Shown one piece after another: positions 15,381 to 64,000 of a DNA stretch of 64,000 bases. The translations under genes and the position numbers were made by a program. A model generated the notes under the pieces. The model ran no database searches, was not told the DNA's origin, and was given only the letters and a program-made list of their open reading frames with translations. Position 1 is the stretch's first letter, and each line of letters begins with the position of its first letter. Origin of the DNA: Ascidiella aspersa (lineage: Eukaryota); assembly GCA_963924565.1 (NCBI GenBank), contig OZ004608.1:6076001-6140000 (forward strand). The letters run 5' to 3'.

Positions 15381-15974
15381 GAAAACGTTTTAGTAGAGTT
15401 CAGTGAAATGTCATTATCAATCAAAATAAACCAACTCTTAAGTAAAACCAAAAACAATTTGTATTGGCTAACATTGTGAGGATCTTTAAATCGAACTTTT
15501 CATTTGTGACAAATTCCAAAACATAATCAAACATAAAATTAAAACAAGTCCTGAACTTAAAGATTAAGATTAACCAAACAGTAACGATAGAAATTTCAAT
15601 AAAAATATAAAAGCCATAATATTTGATAAAAGCGACATTTCGCAATTTACAGACGTTTCAGCATTAACTCATGCCATCATCAGTGTAAAAATCAAGTGAA
15701 GATACAAGCGATAAAACGTAAAATTACTAAAGAAACCCGTGTATTGTGTTCCAAAGTAACGATAGAGATGTACAAATAAACGTTAAGTAACAATTAGGAC
15801 GCGTATAAGAAAACAAAACAGTTCAGAATGCTGCGATCGTAGCAGTGATCTAAATACAGATAAAAATGTTTCCGCAGGGAACGTTGAATGTCTCATTTCG
15901 CGTAAAATATTGTCAATACCGATAAATTATTAACAGACTGTGTATTTTATTGGTAATTACTTTGCTTTAGCTCA

Positions 15975-16262
15975 TTAGCATGATTGATCTGGCGACTTGA
16001 ACTCGACATAATCCCCGTGTTTTCCCTCATTTCCCTGGACCCGAAACACAGGGTTGAGATTCACGTAACCGCTTTCTTGGTATTCGTCATCAGAACATTC
16101 TTTTGTGACTTAAAATATTAGGATTAAATATGCAATTTGTTCAATCAAGACATTCTTGTTGTTATTTTAGGTTTCCACGGATAATGCAAACTTAACAATA
16201 CCAAATGGCAAAAGCACTACGAACTAATGTCAAACAACTGTCGCACTCAGAAGCCTATTCAT
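15975..16262 (-). pseudogene. Internally deleted lectin-receptor relic: decayed A-type signal-peptide start joined to an intact Tyr-motif terminal exon
   Basis: 16262-16201 aligns to the A-gene start (ATG..AGTGCTTTTGCCATTTGG) with a frameshift. 16108-15975 reads TKECSDDEYQESGYVNLNPVFRVQGNEGKHGDYVEFKSPDQSC*. Its upstream region resembles that of A1. Confidence 0.7.
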
Positions 16263-17691
16263 CCTACATGACTGTGTTGTAAACTAAAAGACTATAAACT
16301 GAATGAACACAATACTGCAACTCGCACCAATATAAGGTTTATAGCAACCTTATGATAACCTATAATACTGTAGTTACATTTATCTTATTGATTTAGAGCC
16401 ATAGCTTTTCCTTAAAGAAACCACCTCTTCAAACTGCTCGACGTTTGTGATGCATGACGCTTCACAAACACTCATGTGTGGGAGAGCGCCCTGACTGAAT
16501 TGTTTCACAAAAGAACAATATTTTTCAAGTATACCATTTTGTTTCATCTACCTGAACAATTCAATATTGCTCACTTACATACATTTGGATAAGTATTGCA
16601 TTAAATTGCCAAACAAGGTAGTTTAGTGTTTTTAGAGAAAGTTGGTTGTGTTACGCTTTCTTAAAACTGCAATATATGTCCAATATTTGAGTTAAGAGTT
16701 TAGCGAGATAACATTACAAACAATGATAAAACGATTCTAAAACAACACCAAGAACAGTTCATATTGGCTAACCGAGTGTGGAACTTTAAAAAAAGTTGAA
16801 TTCATGATTTATAGCAAATAATAAAAATGTGTTATAATTAAATAAAGTGGCGCTCCAGCAGCAAATTTTAGGATTTTCCCATATATTTTTTATTTGTCAG
16901 CATCACCATCTGTCATTTGACTGGAATTATAAGTTTAACTTTGACAACTTGAATACAATATTAAAATATTTAGTTTTATAATACACGATACAAGATGGAA
17001 TCAAAGAGTATTAGCAAGTTGTCAATATCCTAATCGGTTTCTCGGATTGTTGTTTGGTAATACTTAATAAAAAACAAACGTAAAACAGTGAAAACTTATC
17101 AAACTTAAAAGAGGACTTTTCACAGTTTAAACATTAAATTATCGAAATTTTATTTGTAGCGTTTTGTATTTCTTTCTCACATTAAATGTTTCGTGTTATT
17201 CTTCTATTTCTTTGCTGATTTCTATTATCTCACGCTTTGCCTAAAGGCGCCGAGCTTTTTTCTTCGGTGATTGTACACAAGTCTTGCAGTCTTGTGTTAA
17301 CTTGTCATTTCATCAGCATTTTAAAGTAAGCTGCAGCTTTTAGGTTTAACAGTAACTGTTTGTTTAGCAAAGATTATTATTCGTTTTGGTAAGAAGCTTT
17401 CATGAACTTCTACTCAAGGTCATAAACGTATATCATCAGATCCTAAGGTAAGTGTTTTTAAGTTCATATAGTTGGTTTGTAAACAATATTTTTTCCACCA
17501 TAGATCTTGTTTTTAGTTTAACTTTTTTTTTCTGCTATCTGAAGTTACAGCTAATATTCTTTGTGATATAAGCTTTTATATTGTTTCACATTGCAAAATA
17601 AAACCAAGACACATACACCTTACGAAAAAGTTGATTCAAAGGGATTTAAAGAAAATATAATTACCTAACAGAATGTTTTTCGACTCGCTCC

Positions 17692-17760
17692 CCTCTGAGC
17701 CTGTGTAGCCCAGTTGGTAGAGCGACAGTAGGTCGTGAGTTTGAACCTCACTGCAGGCTA
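17692..17760 (+). mobile_element. tRNA-derived repeat (SINE-like or pseudo-tRNA)
   Basis: A-box-like tagcccagttggtagagc and B-box-like gagtttgaacc. Anticodon arm deleted. Same family as 47245-47575. Confidence 0.6.
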
Positions 17761-17852
17761 TAGTCGTTTTTCTAGCCTGTCTTGGCTGTCTTGCTTGAGA
17801 TAGCTTACAACTACACAAAAGCAAGGTTCTTTAAATAATGGAGTATTTAGAC

Positions 17853-18150
17853 CAGGATTTCCCAAACTGTGGTCCGCGGACGACTGCACAGGTGGTCCGT
17901 GGTGATATGAAGAAATTTTCACCCACGTTGCACAGTACGTACCCTTTCAAAGATAAACTACACAACATAATGATTTCGAAAGCTTTTGCTATCCAGTATC
18001 GTAAATCTTACTTCTTACACCTTCATTCTAGTCAAAAAGTTGTTTACGAAAAAATTATCAAATTTCTCGTTTATGACGGATAATATATTCTTGTGTGAGA
18101 GAGCATTTTCAGCTCTTACAACCATGAAGACAACATGCAGGTCCAAACTT
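17853..18150 (+). mobile_element. hAT (Buster/Charlie-type) transposon relic
   Basis: Terminus caggatttcccaaactgtgg. 18085-18150 translates IFLCERAFSALTTMKTTCRSKL, resembling the C-terminal LCExxFS motif of Buster-type transposases. Confidence 0.65.
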
Positions 18151-18405
18151 TTCGGGTAATATTTGTATGTTTTTACATGTTTGGGACAATTGGTCACATC
18201 GTTTGGATGACAATTTTACTTTAAAATACGGGTTCATGTCTTAAACCATTTCTTGTGCTTGTTTTTCTAATTGTACTGAGGCTGACTTCCGAAATCATAA
18301 AACGATCATCAAGACATATTGAAAAAGGTACGACCATAAACAGCTTCTACAGTTTTACTGCGTGGGCCATTCAATACAGCGTGACGTTGCGATCAGCTGA
18401 AGTCG

Positions 18406-18541
18406 TACGGGACGCCATATAATTCCTGCATTAATACGGGACGCCATATAATCCCTGCATTAATACGGGGCGCCATATAATTCCTGCATTAATACGGGAC
18501 GCCATATATTTCCTGCATTAATACGGGGCGCCATATTTCCT
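18406..18541. repeat. 29-bp minisatellite, about 4.6 copies
   Basis: Unit tacgggacgccatataattcctgcattaa starting at 18406, 18435, 18464, 18493 and 18522, with no spacers. Confidence 0.9.
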
Positions 18542-18819
18542 CCAATGTGAAACAATGGGTAGAAGGTATATTAAGAGCATAATTAATTCCACGACGTCCT
18601 TCAAGTGCAAGGGTGAGATATAGTCAAGTTAATGCTTAAATGACGCTAATTTTCTTACACTATTTTTTGTGCGTTACGGTGGTCAACCAACTGATCAGCA
18701 TTATGACGTAGATTTTCAGTCAACAGAAAAACTGATATATCGTATATGTGCTTTGGATTACGGTATAGTGAATTTCAGATACTCCTCTGTGCGATATTTT
18801 GTGGCGTGAGTTCAACGAT

Positions 18820-21800
18820 TCAACGCTTTATCACGGCCGTGTACATGTCGTTGCTGGTAGGTTGGGTGTTGGAATCTGCAAGGTGACTAGATTCTTCGTC
18901 AGCGAAGTTGTAGGTTTGTGACGACTCTGTTTCATTTCCTTGTGGTTCAGCTCCTTAAAAATCATACACAGGTTATACCGATGCACTATAAATATCGAAA
19001 TTTGCGTGATATCTGCACCCTGCTTGCGATTAATTTATCTGACGCCTTGGACAGCATCAATAGAATTGTTACTTAACATGTACCTAAAGCAACCGATAGA
19101 GAGTTTTGATAAAAGTGTAAGCACAACAAATTATTCGAAGCTCGGAAATTTCCGTATTGCAACGGAAAAGGGCGTATTTCATTGCAAATGTCTGATTAGG
19201 CCGGGTCTGCGGACTAATTGCCAGAAAAAACAATTAAACACTGTAAAAAGTTTTGGTCAGTTTGATTTTATTTTTTAGAAAAACTCCATATTTAGAGTTC
19301 GCGTGTTTTGAGTCAGATGCAAAAAAACAGGCGGGTTATACCATTCTTGTTCGTAAATTGAATATGGGATCATTAAAACCACGGAATCTTTGCAAGTTTG
19401 CTACTGTTTTCCATTCTACTTGGTATCGCTCCGAAACACATAACTACCTGTAATCATGCTTTCTCCTTAGAATATAATCATTTCCATAATTTATTTGATG
19501 TCTTACCACGTGTTGCTTCGGAGTAGACCGCTTCCTGTATGGAAATGGATACATTGTCTTCCACCGTGCTGTACTCCACACTCAATCTACCACTTGAACG
19601 TTGGTTTTGCCCATAAGTTGCCGGATTAACGGCGGTGGTTGAGGTTGCCATTCCTGTCATGTTCAGGTGCGAATATTCGTTGTCGCATTGTTGTGTGCTT
19701 TCGAATTGCAGCGTTGAGTATTCTTGCCGCGGTTCTGGCAACTCGTAATCGTTTTCCGCTTCATCCTGGTCTGTACGAGTCAAAATAACTTTTAAATGAA
19801 GAACCGACCGGCCTATGCAAGACATAAACTTAAAAATAAAAAACGAATTAACAATAGTAAAGGTACACTTTTTAATTCTATACGGCAGGAGCAAAATAGA
19901 TTACAATTTTGTGAGGATTTGGGTAAACTATATGAGGTGATTGAAGCATAACAACCGGATGTTGTAGTTGGCGTACAACAAATATCAAATCCCAAGCAAA
20001 AATGGGCAGCATTTTATATACATTAAAATACCTTTAAATCACAAGGATACCTATACTTGCACTTTTGGGGGCTTCATTATTTATTCTTGGTCTATATATA
20101 ATGCCTCATATTCAAGCAAACTTATCCAGGCCGATCGATCTTTCGCAAAAGGTCGTTTAGCGGTTAAAATATCCCCCATAATCATTGACTGAAAATACAG
20201 CAAAAAAAAAGTTTAAAAAAATAAGTTTAACTTAAGAATAAACCGTTATGTGGTTGTGTTGCTGCTGTTTTAGTCGCCTCCGTTGTTCTACGCTTCCTGA
20301 AATGGAAGCAAAGCACAGATAAACAAACCACGGTAAAGTATTATTAGCCAAAGCCTTCCACCCACCTCAGACAATGCACAGCAGCAACTACTGCGCAACA
20401 AAGAAGCACAGCTCCCGCGATTGAAGCGGCTAATGTTGTGGTTAGATTTCCTGTGCCTCCAGATGACATGGTTGTGCTGTAGACTACAAAGCAAACACGT
20501 GTAAATCTCTTTTGATAACAATTTGACCATAAACGAGAAAAAGGTATTACTCCTGTTTGGTTGTCAATTAAAAGAAAAACCCAAACAATTTCGCAGCTAA
20601 AGCCAATTTACGATTAGGCCTATCATACTCTATTTGGTTATTAGGCAATTTTAAATGAACTTATATTTACCTTGCGATCCAGTTTCTGTTGTTATAATAA
20701 AGCTTTCCGTCACATGTGAAGTCACACTGTCGTTTTGGGCCTGATCTGTAGACAATTTGTGTAATCCGCTTTAAATAGTTATTGGCAATGGTTAAATCAG
20801 TGTTTTTTTTTAACTTGGGGGCGCACCTGGAGGCATTTTAAAACGAGGCGGCGCACTTTTTGAGCGAAGCGGGCGCGAAAAATTTGAGCTCTACCTGTTT
20901 TTCTCTTAAATAGGTTGCAATTTTTTATTATATAGGCTTTATAGTATATTTAAAGAGACTCCACCCTTGAGACCAAAATAAGAACAACATTAACTTGGCA
21001 ATAAAAGACAGTTAGGAATAGGGCGTAAATAGGACTAATACCTAATAGTCGTAACAATGACGAAATCGGAATAAGACCTAATTGGACAAAATAAGGCCAG
21101 ATACAACCTTTATTTAACCCCAAACACCATACGTAATTATCACCAACTTCACGAATATTTTCAACCTTATTATAATTAATCCAATTGCTAACACCACCAA
21201 CTACCCGCCCATAAAGCCCAAACAGAGGCAAAAAAACGGTGCAAAAACAGCGGCGCCCAAATATCCGCAGAAACGGCCAATGCCAAACAGGTGTCCCCCA
21301 ATCATCCCATATCCTGATCATCCCATACCCAGTCTTGGGCGTAATTTTGTCCAGTTAGTTCTTATTTCGATTAATTTCGGGCTTAGTTCGACATGTTTAG
21401 GTCTTATCTAGACTATATTTTAGATATTTTTCTGTCTGGTCATTACTGCGAATTTGGCGTAATTATGTCGGTGGTCTTAGTACTATGGTATTATAGATTA
21501 TCTGATTTAGATATTGCTGCTTTGTAGGTCTTTGGAATCAATAAGCTAAGCTTAATAGGAAGGTAATTTCTAATTAGTGTTAATCCACTGTAAATATTAA
21601 AATTGCAGCGGCTAGTATATAGTGGTTTGGTTTCCTGAAAAGTTTCCAGATGACATGACTGCGCTAAAGACTACAAATCAAACACTTTTTAAGAAAATCT
21701 AAAATTTTTCAGTTTCAGCAAATTTGCGATTACCTCACTCTATTTGGTTATTAGCAGTTTTAAAAGTTCTTATATTTACCTTGCGATCCAGTTTTTGTTG

Positions 21801-22963
21801 TTATATTAAAGCTTCCCGTCACGTATGACGTCACGTTGTCGATATGACCCTGGTCTGTAGACGATTTAGGAAATCCGCATTAAATGGTTAATGGCAATGG
21901 TTAAGTCGAAGACAATAGTGAACTTCTTGTAAGTCTTATGTGTGCTTTACCTGCCTTTTTACCACGGGCTACAAAAATTAGGGGTTTAGCATAACAAGTT
22001 TGCTGAGTAATAGTAGCATAATTCTTAACATCTGTCCAAACTTGTGGGTACGTTTAGTTTTCTCATGTTAAACGTTTATAAAGAAAATGTTTATTGTACG
22101 CTTTACGATACCTGAAATGCGTGAGTATTAGCCTGTTTCGAGACGTTATAGTTGGACAAGGACGCATTTTTTAACAATACAGATTACATGTTTGTAGCAC
22201 AACTTAAGCCGCTATCGAAATGCGGAATGTGTTCAACACATTTACAACAGTCTTGTAGTCGTAAACGTTTAACCCTTGAAAGACCTGTTATAACGTTGTT
22301 GGTTGATAAAGCGTAGACTGTTGTCGCAATGTTTGTAGAAACTTCAACTTGTGACTGGAGAGTGGTGAACGGTTGTGTTGTTTGTGGTGGAGCATGTTCA
22401 GCAAATAAAAACACGTGATTTTTATAAAGTCAATTTTAAGTGTAAATAGTCAGACTTACTAATCGCTCTTTGGCAAATGTATTTTTCCTTTCTGCTGCAT
22501 TTTATGTCAACCCAAGGATAGTCCTGTCCACTTTTCTCCATTGCTGCGCAATCCTCCAGCCATAATACGTTATTCGGCTCTCCAGGTCTCCATTTCGTGT
22601 AATTTAACTGTGATTCGTCCCGCCATTCGAATATGCTGTTCTCTTTTCAATCCGATATAATAATTGTTTGTACCTGAAAATAGAGGCGCAATTACAGTAC
22701 GTCACAACTCGTGCTCTTGGTTGAACTTGTTAGAAAACACTACCTGCAATATTTCGCAGTTCATTCGCTAAAAATGTTTGTATCCTACACGAGTTGACTT
22801 TTACCAGACTTCCATTTAATCTAACACACTCTTCTGAAGCTTGATGGAAAGTTTTTTTGTTGGTGCTTTCGATGTGGTATTCCAGGTTGTCCAATTGATG
22901 CCAAATAGCAAAAGCACTACCAAACAATGTTAAAACAATTGTCACACAAAGCAGCTTAATCAT
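18820..22963 (-). pseudogene. C-type lectin receptor A2 (EPN CTLD, stalk, TM, ITAM-like/ITIM tail); ectodomain disrupted
   Basis: Exons 22963-22744, 22673-22460 (5-nt deletion after KR, frameshift), 22398-22285 (acceptor CAG mutated to CTG), 21968-21951, 21854-21780, 20745-20671, 20483-20366 (TM LAASIAGAVLLCCAVVAAVHCL), 20296-20244 (RKRR), 19770-19507 (YELP, YSTL-x11-YSHL, VEYSTV, VYSEA), 18953-18820 (..TYNF..DMYTAVIKR*). Confidence 0.75.
20800..21560. mobile_element. Intronic insertion with internal inverted arms (foldback/MITE-like); copy at about 36040-36800
   Basis: 21071-21098 (ataagacctaattggacaaaataaggcc) is nearly the reverse complement of ~21337-21365. The insertion interrupts a local duplication. 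Boundaries approximate. Confidence 0.45.
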
Positions 22964-25900
22964 CCTACAGTACATGGCTGTGTTGCGAGCTAAAAAGCTT
23001 TTTAAACTGAATGGGCATATAATAAAACTCGTACGAATGTTCCACTAAAGGCAACCTTATGATAACCTCGAATACTATAGTTGCATAAAGCCTATTGATT
23101 TCAGGCAAACTGTAAAACCGCCTCTTCCTATGGTGTATGTGACGCATTACACTTTGCAAGATACTCAGGAATTGTGTGGGACAAAGCCCTGGCGGAATTG
23201 TTTATAAAATGTCGGTTTCAAATAGGTTTTAAAAAAGTTTAACAGAGTATAAGTGCGTTAAAAAAATGTACTTCTTCTTAGACATGATAGAGTGCTCGCT
23301 CGCACTGCTTGCTCTTTTGCAATGTTCTGATAATCGAAACCCTAGTAGGTAAACGTGGTCGATGATCTTGCAATATTCCACCAGTTTGTCGTCCACCAGT
23401 ATATCGGGGGTTTACCTTAACCCTAGGCCTTGAGCGTGAAGCAATTTAAAAAAATTTCACTATTTAATTTTTTCTTTGTGCTGTCATATATGTTCTCTCG
23501 GAAACATTTTAATGGTTAGACAACATTGATCTTTTTATATGAAGCCGCCAGACACAGTTTAACGTTTTGTTAAGCTTAAATTGATTTTAACAGCTCATGT
23601 TGCAAAACGCAACATTAAAGAAGTCTAAAATAACCGCACTCCAATATGTTGTTCTATCCGTTTGGTGAAAGAAACTTTTGACCAAGAACATTAGTGTTTT
23701 TTAAATTAACTTATTTGCCAAAAATAAACGACTGGGTAAAAATCTGTGGCAACATTTGAAAAAATGAAGGAAAATCCTATTTTTTTTTTAATGTTTCCCT
23801 GGGACCAAATATTTTTAACCCCTTTAATGCTTTTAGCGGGAAAACCTCCAAAAGTACCTGGAGCAAAAAATACACAAGGTTATCGATGCCCGAAAGATGT
23901 TTGGTTGCAATATTGTAACTTTGTAGGGCAGTGTTTATTCAATTTTTTTGTTTTGTTAACCCCTAGCTATCTTCAGATTTCATTCAACCTTGTCTCATGA
24001 TACGATAAAACTAACTTGTCTATATATAACTGCACAAAATGTCTTACTGCAGAGCTATCATCCATTTCTGACGATTCACCCTTATTCACCCCTTTTAGTT
24101 GGTTCACCCTGCACAATTTTTATTCACCCTCGGGTGAACCATTCACGTGTTTAAGAAACACGTTTTAGGGTGTTTGACGGAACTTTCTCCTTTGGCACAA
24201 AAATGCTACGTTTTTTCAAATACGCCTATCACCGGTAAGTGTCGCTTTCGCACTACTAAGAAATCTAATGTTTGCGCTGGTTAATTTGCACAGAGCCTGA
24301 CTTCGGGAAAACTCAGTCAAATCGGCGGGAACTTGAGCTTCATTTTGCGGCGACGGCAATGAACAATAATCACTAAATTTAAGACATATGTAGTAAGAAT
24401 AGCAAAGCCAATACTGAAGTTTAAACGTTTCGAATAACTCTTTATTTGTTTTCAATATCAGACATATGGATGCTTAATCCAACTGTTGGACATGTTGTTT
24501 TATATAGAGCTCATGCTGGTCATTTAGCGTTTCCACAATGGCTTAACCAAATAGCAAAAGTACTTTGAATCAGAGCAAAAACAACAATCGACGATATGCA
24601 TCATTAACGGTGGTGAAAACAACTAAACTCGCATCTTAAAAATGTTACTCAGGCAAACCGTGCCTACACCTAACCTCATGATAAGCTATTCAAACAGCGT
24701 AATGCACAGGGAATGTGTGTAGTAGAACGATAAGAAGGTTAATTAAGGTAACTTTTAAAAACTCGACGGTAACTCAAAGCGTTTAAGAATCGTTTCACAC
24801 CGAAACCAAAAAATAAATGAAAATAAATGCTGAACAGATTTAGAATTTTGTACGTTAACTTGAAACATAGTTTTTTTAGTCTTCTAATTGACTTTGCACA
24901 GAGCCTGACTTTAGGAAACGTAATTTATTTCGGACTTATGATGTATTTCATAGGCCGTGATGTTGATTAAACCTGCATTTGACATCTTTATTAAATTTAT
25001 TTGCCAAACTGTTCGAACACGCAGCACAAGCGCGGTGGTTCAGAGGTTTTACAAATTTATGTTTAATAAAACTTAGCATAAATTGGACATAGTGTAATGT
25101 TGGGTGATTTGTTGGCAAAATCCTACAATAAGAACGATGGTTGCTTACAGAACACTTTTGCTGTGTGTTATCTGAGTTGTGTTGTTAGGATTTTCAACAT
25201 TTCAACGGTTCTTCTCAATATAAACGAGAATCCTATTGTTTCAACTAATATAAACCGTCCTGCTTTGCTTATTATTTTCTCAACTAAGAAACAACGTACG
25301 TTGATGTTTGCGAACTACTGTAGTTTATTATGTTAAGTCAGGGGTCAGCAGAGTGAATTCTAACGGCCCGCTGCAGATTTCCTTAACGATGATAAAGTGC
25401 AGTTGAAAATTTGTCGGATTCAATTACAAATTACCTTTTACTTAATATTTTAAACTGAACAACAATTGATTAAAACTCACTACAGTTGCATAATTGGTTA
25501 TAAATTATTCGTTAGGCAAAAATCGTGTGAACTAATTGGACAGAAAATTTAACTCCGGTTCCCTATCGCCCGAACTTACAGATAATTCGGCAATTTATGT
25601 CAGAAGTGGTGGCTCCTGTGTTAAGCGCTGTAGATAAATTGGGCTCCATATATTCTTCAGGTTTTACTTTCAAAAAGTGTAAGATTAAGCGACATCGATT
25701 AAAAAATGCAGAACGTTTCATCATTATTGAAAATTTTATGAGATATAGACAGTGTTACAGATATTTGTGAAACGTAAGTCACATAGAAAATCGAGTGTTA
25801 TTTTTTAGTGGCGGAAATTTATAGTAACTTTTGTAAAACTATTTATAGATACAAACTTTTTACAGTAGTTGAACGAACACTTTTTCTTGTAATTCGCGCG

Positions 25901-26212
25901 ATACAAGAGTTGTTGTTTGTGCTATTTAACAAAAATCAGAACACAGTGCGAATAACAGTATTTCTCATGAAGCACATTATTTATGAAATTGTTTCAGATA
26001 CTAAGGGTCAAGTCTATGAAGCGAATCTAAAGTTTTAGGTAATTACCTTGCACAGAACCCCAACTACACCTACAGAAAATATAAAAGTGAATTAATCAGG
26101 AAGAATAAAACTCTAAATTTACGTCCAATATTGTTTATACCGAGAAATGAACATTGGTTCATTTTTCTAACTGTTGTAAGGAGGCTTTTATTCGTATTGC
26201 ATTTGTTATGGA

Positions 26213-33300: not shown

Positions 33301-34446
33301 TAATTTAAATTTTAAAGTATTGCATGTTTTTATTCCTTAAGGTGAACCTTTAGCATTCCGTGCCTATAAAGCCAACCTTTGGCGAATATGTACTGGATTA
33401 TAGCTAAATGATTTTCCAAATTTAACATGCAAATATATCACTAACTTCGGAAAATTTTATTTGTTTCGGCGGGAAAACGCATCTCATTTTGCCGCGACGA
33501 TCTTTAAATATGAATATTTTAAAACATAGGAGTGTTTATTTATTCTTGATTATTTGACCTAACTATTCTATTTAGCACATCTTAAACGTGTTTGTTTTGT
33601 ATTCCCGTAAAGACCTTAAAGGTCAAAAATATTTTTGGTATCAACACGGTGTGATCAATAGCTTCCTGTAGTTCTCAGCCTTGTTTTCGACGTTGTTTGT
33701 TGCTGGGCTTTTATAAATCGCAATGTTGCCTCGTTAGCAAGTCGTAGATTTTAAAATTACCGCTGCCCATATATGAGATTTTCGAAAAGTATTGTACAAA
33801 TGTTACAATGTATCGAAAATTTCCTCTTAAATATACCAATTTGTTTCGTCGGCATAAACAATTCAATATTGCGTACATAATATATTTAAGTTCATTTTAA
33901 AAGACACAAGGTGCTTTAATGTTTTCGAGATATTTTTTTTATGTTCAGTATCAGTGGCTTAAACAAACCAATACAGGTTATTTCAACGAATTTGTGTAGA
34001 ATTCAGCAAAATGAGATTATAAACAAAAACAAACCGACTGCTAAGCAAAACAAAAAGCAATTTGTTTTGGCTAACATTGGGTGGAACTTTAAATCGAACT
34101 TTTCATTTGTAACAAATCACAAAAACAACACTAAACATCAGATTAAAACAAGACCTGAAATTTAAAGAGAAATAAATATTAACCAAACAGTAATGATAGA
34201 GATGTACAAATAGCGATGAGTTACAATTAGGACGCGTGATTTACTAGCAATAAGAAAACAAAACAGTTCAGAATGCATTATATCAATACTTCACTCAAGC
34301 TGCGATCATAGAAGTTATCTAAATAAATATAAAATGCTTCAGTAGGGAACGTTGGATGTCTAATTTCATGTAAACTATTTCCATACCGAGAGAATATTAA
34401 CCAAACCGACTGTGTGTTTTATTGGTAATTAATTTGCTTTAGCTCA

Positions 34447-37400
34447 TTAGCATGATTGATCTGGCGACTTGAACTCGACGTATCCCAGGTCTGTTTCCTC
34501 ATTTCCCTGGACCGGAAACACGGGGTTGGGTTTCACGTAGCCACTTTCTTCTTCTTCGTCCGTACATTCTTTTGAGCCTTAAAATATTCTTTTTCGTAAA
34601 TTGAATTAGGGATCATTAAAACCACGGAATCTTTGCAAGTTTGTTACTGTTTTCCATTCTACTTGGTATCGCTCCGAAACACATAACTACCTCTAATCAT
34701 GCTTTCTCTTTAGAATATAATCATTTCCATAATTTATTTAATGTCTTACCACGTGTTGCTTCGAAGTAGACCGCTTCCTGTATGGAAATGGATACATTGT
34801 CTTCCACCGTGCTGTACTCAACAATCAATCCACCACTTGAACGTTGGTTTTGCCCATTAGTAGCAGGATTAACGGCGGTGGTTGAGGTTGCCATTCCTGT
34901 TATGTTCAGGTGCGAGTTCTCGTTGTCGTATTGTTGTGTGCTTTCGAGTTGCAGCGTTGAGTATTCTTGACGCGTTTCTGGCAACTCGTACTCGTTTTCC
35001 GCTTCATCCTGGTCTGTACGAGTCAAAATAACTTTTAAATGAAGAACCTACCGGCCTATGCAAGACATATACTTAAAAATAAAAAACGAATTAACAATAG
35101 TAAAGGTACACTTTTTAATTCTATACGGCAGGAGCAAAATAGATTACAATTTTGTGAGGATTTGGATAAACTATTTTAGATGATTGAAGCATAACAACCG
35201 GATGATGTAGTTGGCGTACAACAAATATCAAATCCCAAGCAGAAACAGGCAGCATTTTATATACATTAAAATACCTTTTTATTCACAAGGATACCTATAC
35301 TTGCACTTTTGGGGGCTTCATTATTTATTCTTGGTCTATATATAATGCCTCATATTCATGCAAACTTATCCAGGCCGATCGATCTTTCGCAAAAGGTCGT
35401 TTAGCGGTTAAAATATCCCCCATAATCATTGACTTAAAATACAGCAAAATAAACAGTTTAAAAAAATACGTTTAACTTAGAATAAACCGTTATGTGGTTG
35501 TGTTGCTGCTGTTTTAGTCGCCTCCGTTGTTCTACGCTTCCTGAAATGGAAGCAAAGCACAGATAAACAAACCACGGTAAAGTATTATTAGTCAAAGCCT
35601 TCCACCCACCTCAGACAATGCACAACAGCAACTACTGCGCAACAAAGAAGCACAGCTCCCGCGATTGAAGCGGCTAATGTTGTGGTTAGATTTCCTGTGC
35701 CTCCAGATGACATGGTTGTGCTGTAGACTACAAAGCAAACACGTGTAAATCTCTTTTGATAACAATTTGACCATAAACGAGAAAAAGGTATTACTCCTGT
35801 TTGGTTGTCAATTAAAAGAAAAACCCAAACAATTTCGCAGCTAAAGCCAATTTACGATTAGGCCTATCATACTCTATTTGGTTATTAGGCAATTTTAAAT
35901 GAACTTATATTTACCTTGCGATCCAGTTTCTGTTGTTATAATAAAGCTTTCCGTCACATGTGAAGTCACACTGTCGTTTTGGGCCTGGTCTGTAGACAAT
36001 TTGTGTAATCCGCTTTAAATAGTTATTGGCAATGGTTAAATCAGTGTTTTTTTTTCTTTTTTTTTTAACTTGGGGGCGCACCTTTTTAACTTGGGGGCGC
36101 ACCTGGAGGCATTTTGAAACGAGGCGGCGCACTTTTTGAGCGAAGCGGGCGCGAAATATTTGAGCTCTACCTGTTTTTTTCTTAAATAGGTTGCAATTTT
36201 TTATTATATAGGCTTTATAGTATATTTAAAGAGACTCCACCCTTGAGACCAAAATAAGAACAACATTAACTTGGCAATAAAAAAACAATGACGAAAATCG
36301 GAATAAGACCTAATTGGACAAAATAAGGCCAGATACAACCTTTATTTAACCCCAAACACCATACGTAACTATCACCAACTCCCCGAATATTTTCAACCTT
36401 ATTATAATTAATCCAATTGCTAACACCACCAACTACCCGCCCATAAAGCCCAAACAGAGGCAAAAAAACGGGGCCAAAACAGCGGCGCCTAAATATCGGC
36501 AGAAACGGCCAATGCCAAACAGGTGTCCCCCAATCATCCCATATCCTGATCATCCCATACCCAGTCTTGGGCGTAATTTTGTCCAGTTAGTTCTTATTTC
36601 GATTAATTTCGGGCTTAGTTCGACATGTTTAGGTCTTATCTAGACTATATTTTAGATATTTTTCTGTCTGGTCATTACTGCGAATTTGGCGTTATTATGT
36701 CGGTGGTCTTAGTACTATGGTATTATAGATTATCTGATTTAGATATTGCTGCTTTGCAGGTCATTGGAATCAATACTGTGGAATCAATAAGCTAAGCTTA
36801 ATAGGAAGGTAATTTCTAATTAGTGTTAATCCACTGTAAATATTAAAATTGCAGCGGCTAGTATATAGTGGTTTGGTTTCCTGAAAAGTTTCCAGATGAC
36901 ATGACTGCGCTAAAGACTACAAATCAAACACTTTTTAAGAAAAGCTAAAGTTTTCCAGTTTCAGCAAATATGCGATTACCTCACTCTATTTGGTTATTAG
37001 CAGTTTTAAAAGTTCTTATATTTACCTTGCGATCCAGTTTTTGTTGTTATATTAAAGCTTTCCGTCACGTATGACGTCACGTTGTCGATATGACCCTGGT
37101 CTTTAGACGATTTAGAAAATCCGCATTAAATAGTTAATGGCAAAGTCGAAGACAATAGTGAACTTTTTGCAAGTCTTATGTGTGCTTTACCTGCCTTTTT
37201 ACCACGGGCTACAAAAATTAGGGGTTTTGCATAACAAGTTTGCTGAGTAATAGTAGCATAATTCTTAACATCTGTCCAACCTTGTGGGTACGTTTAGTTT
37301 TCTCATGTTAAACGTTTATAAAGAAAATGTTTATTGTACGCTTTACGATACCTGAAATGCGTGAGTATTAGCCTGTTTCGAGACGTTATAGTTGGACAAT

Positions 37401-38210
37401 GACGCATTTTTTAACAATACAGATTACATGTTTGTAGCACAACTTAAGCCGCTATCGAAATGCGGAATGTGTTTAACACATTTACAACAGTCTTGTAGTC
37501 CTAAACGTTTAACCTTGAAAGACCTGTTAAAACGTTGTTGGTTGATAAAGCGTAGACTGTTGTCGCAATGTTTGTAGAAACTTCATTTTGTGACTGGAGA
37601 GTGGTGAACGGTTGTGTTGTTTGTGGTGGAGCTTGTTCTGCAAATAAAAGCACGCGATTTTTATAAAGTCAATTTTAAGTGTAAATAGTCAGACTTACTA
37701 ATCGTTCTTTGGCAAATGTATTTTTCTGATCTGCTGCATTTTATGTCAACCCAAGGATAGTCCTGTCCACTTTTATTCATCGCTGCGCAATCCTCCACCC
37801 AAAGAAACCAACTGTTCGGTTCTCCAGGTTTCCAATTCTTATAATTTAACTTCGAACCGTCCAGCCATTCGAATATGCTGTTGGTTGCTCTTTTCAATCC
37901 GATATAATAATTGTTTGTACCTGAAAATAGAGGCGCAATTACAGTACGTCACAACTCGTGCTCTTGGTTGAACTTGTTTGAAAACACTACCTGCAATATT
38001 TCGCAGTTCATTCGCTAAAAATGTTTGTATCCTAGACGAGTTGACTTTTACCAGACTTCCATTTAATCTAACACACTCTTCTGCAGCTTGATGGAAAGTT
38101 TTTTTGTTGGTGCTTTCGATGTGGTATTCCAGGTTGTCCAATTGATGCCAAATAGCAAAAGCACTACCAAACAATGTTACAACAATTGTCACACAAAGCA
38201 GCTTAATCAT
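34447..38210 (-). CDS. C-type lectin receptor A3: intact EPN-type CTLD, stalk, TM, ITIM-bearing tail
   Basis: Exons 38210-37991, 37920-37699 (YYIGLKRATNSIFEW..WKPGEPNSWFLWVEDC..WVDIKC..YICQ), 37637-37524, 37208-37191, 37100-37026, 35989-35915, 35727-35610 (TM), 35540-35488, 35013-34750, 34577-34447. If the last intron is retained the protein ends at 34721. Confidence 0.75.
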
Positions 38211-41200
38211 CCTACAGTATATGGCTGTGTTGCGAGCTAAAAAGCTTTTTAAACTGAATGGGCATATAATAAAACTCGTACGAATGTTCCACTAAAGGCA
38301 ACCTTATGATAACCTCGAATACTATAGTTGCATATAGCCTATTGATTCCAGACAAACTGTAAAACCGCCTCTTCCTATGGTGTATGTGACGCATTACACT
38401 TTGCAAGATACTCAGGAATTGTGTGGGACAAAGCCCTGGCGGAATTGTTTATAAAATGTAGGTTTCAAATAGGTTTTAAAAAAGTTTAACAGAGTACAAG
38501 TGCGTTAAAAAAATGTACTTCTTCTTAGACATGATAGAGTGCTGGCTCGCACTGCTTGCTCTTTTGCAATGTTATGATACTCGAAACCCCAGTAGGTAAA
38601 CGTGGTCGATGATCTTACAATATTCCACGAGTTTGTCGTCCACCAGTATATCGGGGGTTTACCTTAACCCTAGGCCGTCAGCGTGAAGCAATTTAAAAAA
38701 TTTTCACTATTTAATTTTTTCTTTGTGCTGTCATATATTTTCTCTCGGAAACATTTTAATGGTTAGACAACATTAATCTTTTTATATGAAGCCGCCAGAC
38801 ACAGTTTAACGTTTTGTTAAGCTTAAATTGATTTTAACAGCTCATGTTGCAAAACGCAACATTAAAGAAGTCTAAAATAACCGCACTCCATTATGTTGTT
38901 CTATCCGTTTTGTGAAAGAAACTTTTGACCAAGAACATTAGTGTTTTTTAAATTAACTTATTTGCCACAAATAAACGACTGGGTAAAAATCTGTGGCAAC
39001 ATTTGACATAATAAAGAAAAATCCTATTTTTTTTTAAATGTTTCCCTGGGACCAAATATTTTTAACCCCTTTAATGCTTTTAGCGGGATAACCTCCAAAA
39101 GTACCTGGAGCAAAAAATACACAAGGTTATCGATGCCCGAAAGATGTTTGGTTGCAATATTGTAACTTTGTAGGGCAGTGTTTATTCAATTTTTTTTGTT
39201 TTGTTAACCCCTAGCTATCTTCAGATTTCATTCAACCTTGTCTCATGATACGATAAAACTAACTTGTCTATATATAACTGCACAAAATGTCTTACTGCAG
39301 AGCTATCATCCATTTCTGACGATTCACCCTTATTCACCCCTTTTAGTTGGTTCACCCTGCACAATTTTTATTCACCCTAGGGTGAACCATCCATCTGTTT
39401 AAGAAACATGTTTTAGGTTGTTTAACGTCACTTTCGCCTTTGGCACAAAAATGCTACGTTTTTTTTAAATACGCCCATCACCGGTAAGTGTCGCTTTCGC
39501 ACAACTAAGAAATCTAATATTTGCGCTGGTTAATTTGCACAGAGCCTGACTTCGGGAAAACTCAGTAAAATCGGCGAGAACTTGAGCTTCATTTTGCCGC
39601 GACGGCAATGAACAATAATCACTAAATTTATGACATATGTAGTAAGAATAGCAAAGCCAATACTGAAGTTTAAACGTTTCGAATAACTCTTTATTTGTTT
39701 TCAATATCAGACATATGGATGATTAATCCAACTGTTGGACATGTTGTTTTATATAGAGCTCATGCTGGTCATTTAGCGTTTCCACAATGGCTTAACCAAA
39801 TAGCAAAAGTACTTTGAATCAGAGCAAAAACAACAATCGTAGTTAAGACGATGTACATCATTAACGGTGGTGAAAACAACTAAATCCCAATCTTAAAAAT
39901 GTTACTCAGGCAAACCGTGCCTACATCTAACCTCATGATAAGCTATTCAAATAACGTAATGCACAGGAAATGTGTGCAGTAGAACGTTAAGAAGGTTAGT
40001 TAAGGTAACTTTAAAAACTCGGCGGTAACTGAGCGTTTAAGGATCGCAATATTTAATTTTTTCGTTTCTCACCGAAACCAAAAAATAAATGAAAATAAAT
40101 ACTAAACAGATTTAGAATTTTGTACGTTAACTTGAAACATAGTTTTTTCAGTTTTTAATTGACTTTTGCAGAGAGCCTGACTTTAGGAAACGTAATTTAT
40201 TTCGGACTTATGATGTATTTCATATGGCCGTGATGTTGATTAAACCTGCATTTGACATATTTTATTAAATTGATTTGCCAAACTGTTCGAACACGCAGCA
40301 CAAGCGCGGTGGTTCAGAGGTTTTACAAATTTATGTTTAATAAAACCTAGCATAAATGGAACTTAGTGTAATGTTGGGTGAATTGTTGACAAAGTCCTAC
40401 AATAAGAACAATGGTTGCTTACAGAACACTTTTGCTGTGTGTCATCTGAGTTGTGTTGTTAGGATTTTCAACATTTCAACGGTTCTTCTCAATTTAAACG
40501 AAAATCCTATTGTGTCAACTATAATATACACTGTCCTGCTTTGCCTATTATTTTCTCAACTAAGAAACAACGTACGTCGATGTTTGCGAACTACTGTAGT
40601 TTATTATGTTAAGTCAGGGGTCAGCAGAGTGAATTCTATCGGCCCGCTGCATATTTCCTTAATGATGATCAAGTGCAGTTGAAAATTTGTCGGATTCAAG
40701 TACAAATTAACTTTTGCTTAATATTTTAAACTGAACAACAAATGATTAAAACTCACTATACAGTTGCATAATTGGTTATAAATTATTCGTTAGGCAAAAA
40801 TCGTGTGAACTAATTGGACAGAAAATTTAACTCCGGCTCGCTATGGCCCGATCTTACAGATAATTCGACAATTTATGTCAAAAGTGGTGGCTCCTGTGTT
40901 AAGCCCTGTAGATAAATTGGCCTCCATATATTCTTCAGGTTTTTCTTTAAAAAGTGTAGGATTAAGCGACATCGATTAAAAAATCCAGAACCTTTTATTA
41001 TTGTCGAAAATGTTATGAAATATAGACAATTTACAGGAATTTATGAAACGTAAGTCACATAGAAAATCGTGTGTTATTTTTTAGTGGCGGAATATTTATA
41101 GCAACTTTTGTAAAACTATTTATTGATACAAATTTTTACAGTAGTTAAACAAACATTTTTTCTTGTAATTCGTGCGATACAAGAGTTGTTTTTTGTGCTA

Positions 41201-41615
41201 TTTAACAAACATCTGTATACTGTGCGAATAACAGTATTACTCATAAAGGACATTATTTATGAATGTTGTTTTAGATGCTAAGGTCAGGTCTATAAACCGA
41301 ATCTAAAGTTTTAGGTATTTGCCTTGCACAGAACTGCACCTACAGAAAATAGTGCGAATAACAGTATTACTCATGAAGGACATTATTTATGAATGTTGTT
41401 TTAGATAATAAGGGTCAATTCTATGAAGCCAATCTAAAGTTTTAGGTAATTACCTTGCACAGAACCCCAACTACACCTACATAAAATATAAAAATGGATT
41501 AGTCAGGAAGCATAAAACTCCCAATTTACGTCCAATATTGTTTATACCGAGAAATTAACATTTAATTTTTTAACTGCTGTAAGGAGGCTTTCACTGGTAT
41601 TGCATTTGTTTGGGC

Positions 41616-62582: not shown

Positions 62583-64000
62583 CAGGGCTGGGGAGCCGGA
62601 GCCGGAGCTGGAGCCCGGAGCTAAGCATTTTCTCTGGAGCCGGAGCTGGAGCTGGAGCCATTTTTATTATTTTTGTGGAGCTGGAGCCGGAGCCAGTTTT
62701 ATTATTTTATGTGGAGCTGGAGCCGGAGCCGGAGCCATTTTTCAATTTGAGGGGATAAAGCTACAAAATTACATTTTGTTCCATCTCCAATATTAGTTAG
62801 CCAAAAGCAATTTTTGAAAACTGGCCTTGGTTTGAAATAAAGCAAGTTTACTGTAAACTGATATAAAATATAAAGGGGGGAGGGGGGATTTTGTAACTCG
62901 TATGGAGAAATTTGTGTCACAATATTAATCTCTTCTGGTTGTCTGTCATGATATATATTGCAAAGAGGTACAAAAGGGAATTATAGAGGCTATAGAGCTT
63001 ATAATAGAGAGTTAAATTTCTGTTCTAAGAATTACATTAAAATATTAATGTTAACTTCAGTACAGACAATGCACAAGACAAACAGGATATAATGCTAAAA
63101 AAGGGCTCACTACAGTGAACTTACACAGGGCGTCACACAATTAATTCGTTTTAAACTCTATTGTGGTAACAAAATCCTTGCAGATATTATTATTCCATGA
63201 TATCTGTATTTGAAATTATTGCTCCGAAAAATCTGCAGCAGTTGATTATAATTTTTAAAAACAATAAATAAAATGGGCTTTGTTGTAAAATGGGCTTTGT
63301 TTGCACAAAAAGACCATTGTTAGTGACAATCAAATCCAACAGATTGTTATTCCAAAGGCGTTGACTTGTTCCAAAGAAAAACAGTTTGATAACCACTGTG
63401 TTAAGGCAACTTGATTTCTGTATCTGTTTTATCCTAGTGTAGCTAATTTTACGTTTTATTTTTCAGAAATCTAGACATAGTAGCGTATATGTAAAATGGC
63501 TAAAAGAAAGAAGTCTGCAGTCTTTAAATATTTTTTAAAATGTGATATGTCAGGATGTTTCATTTGTCAAGTCAAGGTGAGTGAAACCATTTGCAGTGCC
63601 AAATTAGTAGGAAAAACTTTCAACTTGAAAAGACATCTAGAAAGAAATCATCCAGAGGTTTACCAGAAAATGGATGGCCAAGACTCTGAAAATAGCTGTG
63701 CAGGGTCTGGAAATCAATCCTTAAAAGATAAAGGAATGTCAAGAGAAACGATTCATAATTTTTTTTCAAATGAAAAAGTTACTGTATCAATGACGAAGAA
63801 TAAGTTTAAACAACATATTATTGAAATGGTGGTAGAAAATAGTATTCCACTAACTTTCTTTTCTTCAAGAGGTTTTAAAGGATTAAATGGAGAACTGGCA
63901 GGTAAACTTGGAGTGTCTTTGGAAAGGCATGAAATTAGAAAGATGGTTATAAGGGCAGCAGCAGATCAAAAAAAGGTATTAAAAGAAGAACTAAGAGACA
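62583..64000 (+). mobile_element. hAT DNA transposon, left end
   Basis: Terminus CAGGGCTGGGGAGCC with subterminal GGAGCC/GGAGCT arrays, followed by a transposase ORF. Confidence 0.75.
63496..64000 (+). CDS. BED zinc-finger hAT transposase, 5' part (runs off the window)
   Basis: MAKRKKSAVFKYF..FICQV..ICSAKL..FNLKRHLERNHP..MVVENSIPLTFF..GF. Open to the window end, which is why it is absent from the ORF track. Confidence 0.8.
   Translation, partial: MAKRKKSAVFKYFLKCDMSGCFICQVKVSETICSAKLVGKTFNLKRHLERNHPEVYQKMDGQDSENSCAGSGNQSLKDKGMSRETIHNFFSNEKVTVSMTKNKFKQHIIEMVVENSIPLTFFSSRGFKGLNGELAGKLGVSLERHEIRKMVIRAAADQKKVLKEELRD

Follow-up and report, generated by a model that had tools for sequence, protein, structure and literature searches.

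The window, a 64,000-nucleotide stretch of Ascidiella aspersa DNA (C2:6076001-6140000; G+C, 35%) from a genome assembly of 308.6 Mb in 75 contigs, lies within a tandem array of approximately fifty C-type-lectin receptor loci extending over C2:5.87-6.36 Mb (L012-L056 and the window itself). Within the array region examined (C2:5.846-6.370 Mb, 524 kb), tblastn identified 50 lectin exon-2 loci, 38 copies of a tyrosine-containing terminal exon, and 12 A-type tyrosine-rich cytoplasmic (c2) exons, and the array exon matches listed all lie on the minus strand. The encoded ectodomains take two forms, EPN-type (A, D and E genes) and QPD-type (B genes), and the cytoplasmic tails are of three types. The A tail is encoded by the c2 exon and an exon specifying DMYTAV, the E tail (NPLY, ELYSQV) is present in three copies, and the tail of D, B and X genes carries AYEVP and HVYVN followed by an exon of the form GYV..GYVEF. 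The usual gene order along the array is D, B, A, D, B, A. On C5 an intron-flanked GH6 match scores 28.1 bits, over the Pfam cut-off, which agrees with a sea-squirt genome, GH6 in animals being a mark of tunicate cellulose synthase. The E-type tail exons, at C2:6252k, 6175k and 6035k, each lie behind an A-like transmembrane exon and are identical to one another. No description of such a tunicate lectin array was present among the titles returned by a full-text literature search covering mostly non-subscription papers, and the array is apparently previously undescribed.

The array also contains, within the window, protein-kinase exons (61015-60363; Pfam Pkinase / PK_Tyr_Ser-Thr) and adhesion-GPCR-type exons (54713-51420; GPS, 7tm_2). 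A BED zinc-finger open reading frame on the plus strand (63484-63999) is probably the start of a hAT-type transposase, and an exon at 48696-48500 resembles, by eye, the end of an Ig domain. Outside the array, the tyrosine exon has weak matches (E values of 4e-4 to 0.01) at C2:7453k, 7459k and 8131k and at C7:27459k. Longer-protein searches with the tail exon, lectin exon 2 and the neighbouring 7TM exon gave no matches among 35, 2 and 4007 candidates, respectively, which is weak evidence.

A3, an A-type gene, occupies positions 38210-34447 of the minus strand and comprises seven exons separated by six GT-AG introns (Table 1). If the donor at 34750 is joined to the acceptor at 34578, the frame is open over 373 codons and is that of an intact type I C-type-lectin receptor. 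Hydropathy and the basic residues that follow the helix predict a signal peptide, a single transmembrane helix, and a cytoplasmic C-terminus, with a tail of 148 residues containing 7 tyrosines. The Lectin_C score of exon 2 (39.9 bits) is above the Pfam cut-off of 22.6; its EPN motif, which we take to be mannose-type, and its WVD motif predict Ca-dependent sugar binding. The stalk-exon donor, although non-consensus, is common to 11/11 A genes. A degenerate extra copy of the transmembrane exon can be seen by eye in intron 3 (36916-36830). At the 3' end, the last donor (G|GTAAGA at 34750/34749) faces an acceptor (TTTTAAG) ending at 34578, after which the exon 34577-34447 continues in frame. This last exon, which a Pfam scan assigned to no family, is of the D type rather than the A type.

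Table 1. Features of A3 and of two comparison loci (window positions)
Feature	Position	Strand	Remarks
A2 paralog with ancestral terminal exon 18953-18820	18820..22963	-	broken
A3 exon 1	37991..38210	-	220 nt, GT donor, phase 1; hydrophobic N-terminus
A3 exon 2, lectin domain second half, EPN and WVD motifs	37699..37920	-	Pfam Lectin_C 39.9 bits
A3 exon 3, Thr/Ser-rich stalk	37524..37637	-	donor AG|GTCTTT
A3 transmembrane exon	35610..35727	-	helix without charged residue; mean hydropathy 2.71 over 19 aa
A3 first cytoplasmic exon, basic stop-transfer residues	35488..35540	-	
A3 tyrosine-rich cytoplasmic (c2) exon	34750..35013	-	ITIM VEYSTV kept
A3 chimeric last intron, 172 nt	34578..34749	-	~160 nt A-type and last 11-13 nt D-type intron
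Junction in A3 last intron	34586..34588	-	3-nt microhomology AAT, A-type and D-type introns
Branch-point-like CTAAT, A at -29	34605..34609	-	putative function
Captured D-type terminal exon	34447..34577	-	acidic run, GYVKP, NPVF, GYVEF, stop
Polyadenylation signal AATAAA 3' of captured exon	34418..34423	-	
Unit-1 relic D gene	15975..16262	-	exon 1 start 16262-16198 joined to last intron and terminal exon 16108-15975

A sequence-only reading of this DNA had proposed that a deletion of 3.2 kb placed another gene's terminal exon behind the A3 donor, replacing an inhibitory end with an acidic tyrosine module. The coordinates and sequence features that it gave for A2 and A3 were all recovered. The A2 terminal exon, a phase-1 exon with an AG acceptor, terminates in DMYTAVIKR and a stop; the interval of approximately 16120-19342 has no equivalent in unit 2, because self-BLAST pairs 19343-26081 with 34586-41351 (94%) and 15755-16119 with 34189-34588 (77%) and nothing between them, leaving a gap of 3226 nt; and a terminal exon of another gene, its acceptor intact and in phase, lies 172 nt from the A3 donor. 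Retention of the A3 last intron, for which that reading expected a tail stopping at 34721, would indeed meet an in-frame stop codon at 34723-34721. The junction is not confined to A3. A genome DNA search returned 41 matches, three of them full-length (1-641), at C2:6110k, 6183k and 6260k, and all three carry the same junction at 172 nt from the donor. Furthermore, a contig of sequencing run X1 (record 2) spans 34495-34638 without gaps and with 6 differing letters, the same number by which the 6183k and 6260k copies differ from A3 over that stretch; X1 is possibly the assembly's own source sample. A second run, X2, covers 34558, and no X2 contig bridging the junction is among the 16 records listed. 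Both runs behave as DNA, with 30/30 bins covered and no intron among the joints listed (15/20). The A3 junction is thus real, and neither a chance resemblance nor a single assembly slip.

The fused arrangement is the derived one, as the sequence-only reading had supposed. It is present in 3/12 A-type genes, whereas 9/12 retain the original last exon, including the distant A gene at C2:6336k, whose c2 exon is only 48% identical; the converse polarity, an insertion into unit 1, was rejected on these grounds. In a tree of the c2 region (11 rows) the three fused genes group together (100/100) inside the unfused ones, and in a tree of the captured exon and its 3' flank (35 rows) they likewise form one clade (100/99), sister to the D genes at 5903k, 6008k, 6168k and 6246k (99/91); both trees are approximate, since the array undergoes conversion. 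A single clade on each side of the junction, lying in the c2 region within unfused genes, indicates one derived event that was copied later.

A deletion-type rearrangement stands as the way in which another gene's terminal exon came to follow the A3 donor, but the proposed size of 3.2 kb does not. That figure takes unit 1 as the ancestral state, and the unit-1 neighbour is a relic, a D gene in which just the start of exon 1 (~65 nt) is left ahead of the last intron and terminal exon and which is itself the product of a separate deletion. The captured exon of A3 shares 82% identity with the relic exon, whereas its identity with three other D genes is 87-89%, and a clade of fused and relic exons was rejected by an AU test (p=0.0011; 34/35 rows, the divergent X-type exon being left out), and with it descent from a unit-1-like ancestor by loss of 3.2 kb. 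The span that the fusion would remove is 6.9, 7.3, 8.3, 8.5 and 13.1 kb in five A-D units that retain a D gene body and 3.2 and 5.9 kb in two relic units (7/8 units, those with a downstream exon). By comparison with the units containing a D body, the deletion was probably ~7-8.5 kb, a whole gene, rather than 3.2 kb, an estimate drawn from other units since the true donor gene was consumed by the event. Exact homology at the junction is limited to 3 nt (AAT), or 4/5 nt with one mismatch.

Several other rearrangements are apparent in the array. The relic has a second copy at C2:5974.6k, and in both places (window 16262-15975; C2:5974.7k-5974.4k) a phase-1 tyrosine exon, orphaned but still open, follows an A-type donor at 3.4 and 6.1 kb; such an exon could act as an alternative last exon, although both upstream A genes are frameshifted. 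At C2:5994.4k an independent deletion joins a transmembrane intron into the tyrosine last exon, and in the D genes at 5903k, 6008k, 6168k and 6246k another has shortened the last intron to ~68 nt. At least four separate deletions have an endpoint within this last intron or close to it, and the array therefore rearranges often.

Whether the captured exon is used depends on splicing. We consider in-frame joining of the donor at 34750 to the acceptor at 34578 likely. The D genes splice to this acceptor too, and do so from a donor in phase 1, so that the in-frame fit of A3 is real but automatic, a point that also suits a neutral alternative in which the junction is real and the captured exon is little used, with the intron kept and the tail of the transcripts stopping at 34721, a polyadenylation signal within the intron employed, or the gene silent. 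An AATAAA at 34738, found in 8/11 A genes, lies 5' of the retention stop and could end the transcript inside the intron. The captured acceptor has pyrimidines at 5/12 positions, compared with 6-7/12 in the native form, and a competing AG 11 nt upstream in A3 shifts the frame. The independent deletions that end at the same exon likewise favor a by-product, as does the poor condition of the A genes, since 8/11 in an intactness scan bear lesions or lack an exon (some of the 1-nt indels being possibly assembly errors). A3, however, is one of only 3/11 that are clean, its captured exon has a polyadenylation signal behind it, which speaks for splicing, and the D clade with the ~68-nt last intron demonstrates that short forms of this intron persist.

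Changes within the fused introns also bear on this alternative. Among eight introns compared, 4/4 changes private to the fused lineage fall in the last 31 nt versus 3/14 other variable columns (Fisher p=0.011, for a window picked post hoc). The branch-point-like CTAAT at -29 is present in 3/3 fused introns and in 0/5 closely related unfused ones, and TTGAC together with loss of a competing AG is found in 2/3 fused introns, so that the branch-like motifs at -29 and -20 are new in the fused lineage and count against a neutral by-product; TTAAT at -39 predates the fusion. Two of the four changes are located at the junction, where they could be bases of D origin or scars of repair.

Coding constraint points in two directions. 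The captured exon is open in 3/3 copies, and between A3 and the 6260k copy it has accumulated 4 synonymous changes and 1 replacement (p=0.006), which speaks for use of the exon. Most of these synonymous changes lie on the 6183k/6260k branch, and gene conversion could account for a synonymous divergence (4/26) far above that of the intron (1-3%). Across paralogs, exons of the captured type have a pN/pS of 0.63. The rest of the A3 coding region differs from 6260k by 8 replacement changes and 1 synonymous change (p=0.69), with no purifying signal, as the neutral alternative would have it. In both other fused copies, 6183k and 6260k (L003 and L002), the GT donor of lectin exon 2 is gone, with a weak in-frame GT 4 nt downstream, and retention of that intron would yield a short secreted lectin; 6183k bears an additional 1-nt deletion, a frameshift. 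In both copies 27 nt of the c2 exon are missing. Taken together, we regard disuse of the captured exon as rather unlikely, and it is the best preserved of the alternatives to an exon that is spliced and has changed the receptor tail.

The nature of that change was assessed with the ITIM (I/L/VxYxxI/L/V) and hemITAM ([E/D][E/D][E/D]xYxxL) patterns given in PMC12582321. The lost DMYTAVIKR end had been read as ITIM-like and inhibitory, but DMYTAV, with D at -2, fails to match that pattern, and just 6/9 unfused genes have it intact. The motif that does match, VEYSTV, lies upstream in the c2 exon and is kept in 11/11 A tails, that of A3 included, so that replacement of an inhibitory end is not supported; from sequence, VEYSTV is predicted to recruit phosphatases and to inhibit. 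The twelfth, distant A gene (6336k) has LEYSTV, and F replaces its DMYTAV tyrosine.

The captured end is, as had been described, an acidic tyrosine exon in which an acidic run accompanies GYVKP and GYVEF. Following the acidic run, YV[K/N]P, NPVF and [G/D]YVEF are conserved in 31/35 copies of the exon, where the pattern itself forces both tyrosines, so that their invariance is circular, and the 4/35 copies that do not fit were dropped; within NPVF, P-x-F is invariant and N is present in 30 of the 31. We read NPxF as a variant of NPxY and GYxxF as a sorting motif, and take YxxP to be a Crk-type site. YVEF fits the YXX-bulky-hydrophobic sorting signal (PMC2121048), and DEC-205, a lectin, is directed to late endosomes by acidic residues, an acidic triad (PMC2185598). 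DMYTAV, now lost, matches YXX-bulky as well, and any gain in sorting is therefore one of degree. In its motifs the captured exon looks more like a sorting or adaptor module than an ITAM or hemITAM, and the swap would then have changed sorting and adaptor sites, with the inhibitory motif of the receptor left in place.

A swap from an inhibitory to an activating receptor, forming an opposing pair with unfused A genes, appears quite improbable. Its attractions are the acidic run ahead of a tyrosine, which is hemITAM-like, the departure of one YxxV, the expression of Syk, SHP-1, SHIP and Crk homologs in Botryllus ampullae (PMC12582321), and the similarity of A2 to A3, whose identity, 96-100% in most 200-nt windows of the ectodomain and transmembrane region, drops to 91-95% over lectin exon 2 and is 94-97% for the tail. 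A2, however, does not survive as a working inhibitory partner. Its lectin exon (22673-22460, 214 nt) is frameshifted and the acceptor of its stalk exon is changed from AG to TG at 22400-22399; thus, this assembly gives no evidence of a working pair that shares an ectodomain, the closest partner being broken. The intact unfused genes at 5911k and 5869k have ~75% protein identity to A3 in lectin exon 2. Nor do the motifs lend an activating change any support. The canonical ITIM is kept, the transmembrane helix has no charged residue, and neither the hemITAM nor the ITAM (x6-8) pattern is present in any of the 11 A tails. The captured ESGYVKP fails as a hemITAM, with S at -2 and P at +3. ITAMs have the spacing YxxL/I-x6-8-YxxL/I, which the two tyrosines gained with the new exon, separated by 19 residues, do not match. 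A looser ITAM-like pair, YxxL-x11-YxxL, is present in 8/8 unfused tails and 0/3 fused ones; of the changes in the fused c2 exon, YSHL to NSHL and YSEA to YFEA, the first removed it, so that the fused lineage has lost the only ITAM-like pair there was. The new tip is therefore more likely, on these motifs, to alter sorting or adaptor binding than to flip the receptor from off to on.

An assembly artefact, or reverse polarity, is hardly credible and already largely refuted, for although tandem arrays are commonly collapsed or misjoined in assemblies and 6183k and 6260k are identical over the tree stretches, A3 differs from both by 1-4% at private sites, a contig of X1 bridges the junction, and the A-type last exon persists in the most distant A gene.

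We favor, with a probability of somewhat under 0.6, the view that A3 is a derived chimeric receptor gene that has lost its own last exon, likely splices to that of another subfamily, and has kept its ITIM while likely gaining a sorting or adaptor tip. A single deletion or unequal exchange at the 3-nt microhomology would have removed the A terminal exon, the spacer, and nearly the whole of the downstream D gene, ~7-8.5 kb in all, leaving the last 11-13 nt of a D intron. The last introns of these subfamilies are all in phase 1, and the product was thus in frame at once. The fused gene would subsequently have been copied to give its present three places. In the resulting protein, the EPN-type lectin domain would bind glycan and phosphorylated VEYSTV would still recruit a phosphatase of the SHP/SHIP type, while the new tip, which takes the place of TYNF and DMYTAV and brings an acidic run, NPVF, YVKP, and GYVEF near the C-terminus, may direct clathrin-adaptor-type uptake or endosomal sorting and perhaps offers SH2 domains a YxxP site. 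A receptor retuned in this way would likely be inhibitory or mixed rather than activating. A broader proposal, which we consider unlikely, is that the array is an undescribed sea-squirt lectin-receptor complex, a counterpart of the natural killer complex, that swaps phase-1 last exons among its three tail types, and that the A3 lineage is a selected swap with a gained branch point, a shed ITAM-like tyrosine, and duplication.

A3 is a real and derived exon capture, present in three copies in an apparently undescribed array. It provides a datable case in which the cytoplasmic tip of a receptor was changed by capture of the exon of a neighbour, and a single array holds the ancestral as well as the derived state. 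If the exon is spliced, two tips on the same ectodomain could be compared directly in an invertebrate chordate. The general mechanism is already known from vertebrates. Human FCGR2C has an ITAM in place of an ITIM, whereas A3 retains its ITIM and acquires no ITAM. FCGR2C arose by unequal crossover in a tandem cluster, bringing together the 5' exons of one paralog and the last (tail) exons of another, and among its alleles many either lack function or are altered at a splice site of the last intron (PMC6786274). In A3, as in FCGR2C, trees of both sides assign the 5' part and the last exon to different paralogs, and a chimeric mRNA of the kind made by such genes is predicted from the sequence. 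FCGR2C, however, combines two homologous FCGR2 genes encoding an Ig-domain receptor, whereas A3 has received only a last exon from a non-homologous tail, and its crossover lies not in long homologous sequence but at 3 nt of exact identity (4/5).

Among tunicates, the lectin array resembles the FcoR genes of Botryllus schlosseri, which are likewise clustered receptors having tyrosine-motif tails with ITIMs (PMC12582321, PMC11507803). FcoR ectodomains and tails undergo intergenic recombination, and tail motifs are switched by allele or by intron retention (PMC12582321). As described in these sources, FcoR proteins are of the Ig/Sushi type and some bear canonical hemITAMs (PMC12582321, PMC11507803), whereas A genes encode type I receptors with a single C-type lectin domain. 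On description, the A3 switch is set apart from FcoR as a fixed genomic exon capture with no link to allorecognition; it extends ITIM-bearing, tail-shuffling tunicate clusters from Ig/Sushi receptors to C-type lectins.

Ly49 and NKG2 receptors are type II proteins whose activating forms use a charged transmembrane residue and an adaptor, unlike A3, which is type I and uncharged in its transmembrane helix. The KLRC, KLRA/Ly49 and PIR families, paired opposing receptors of leukocytes whose ectodomains are homogenised, are nevertheless comparable to the array as clustered lectin-domain receptors with similar ectodomains and different tails (PMC3210942). The best PDB sequence matches of A3 exon 2 fall in the mannose-receptor group (MRC1, DEC-205/LY75) and reflect the fold only. 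Like A3, MRC1 and DEC-205/LY75 are type I C-type lectins, with a tyrosine-based uptake signal and acidic residues in the tail (PMC2185598); they are, however, multi-domain receptors with short tails, whereas A3 carries one lectin domain on a short stalk and a tail of 148 residues.
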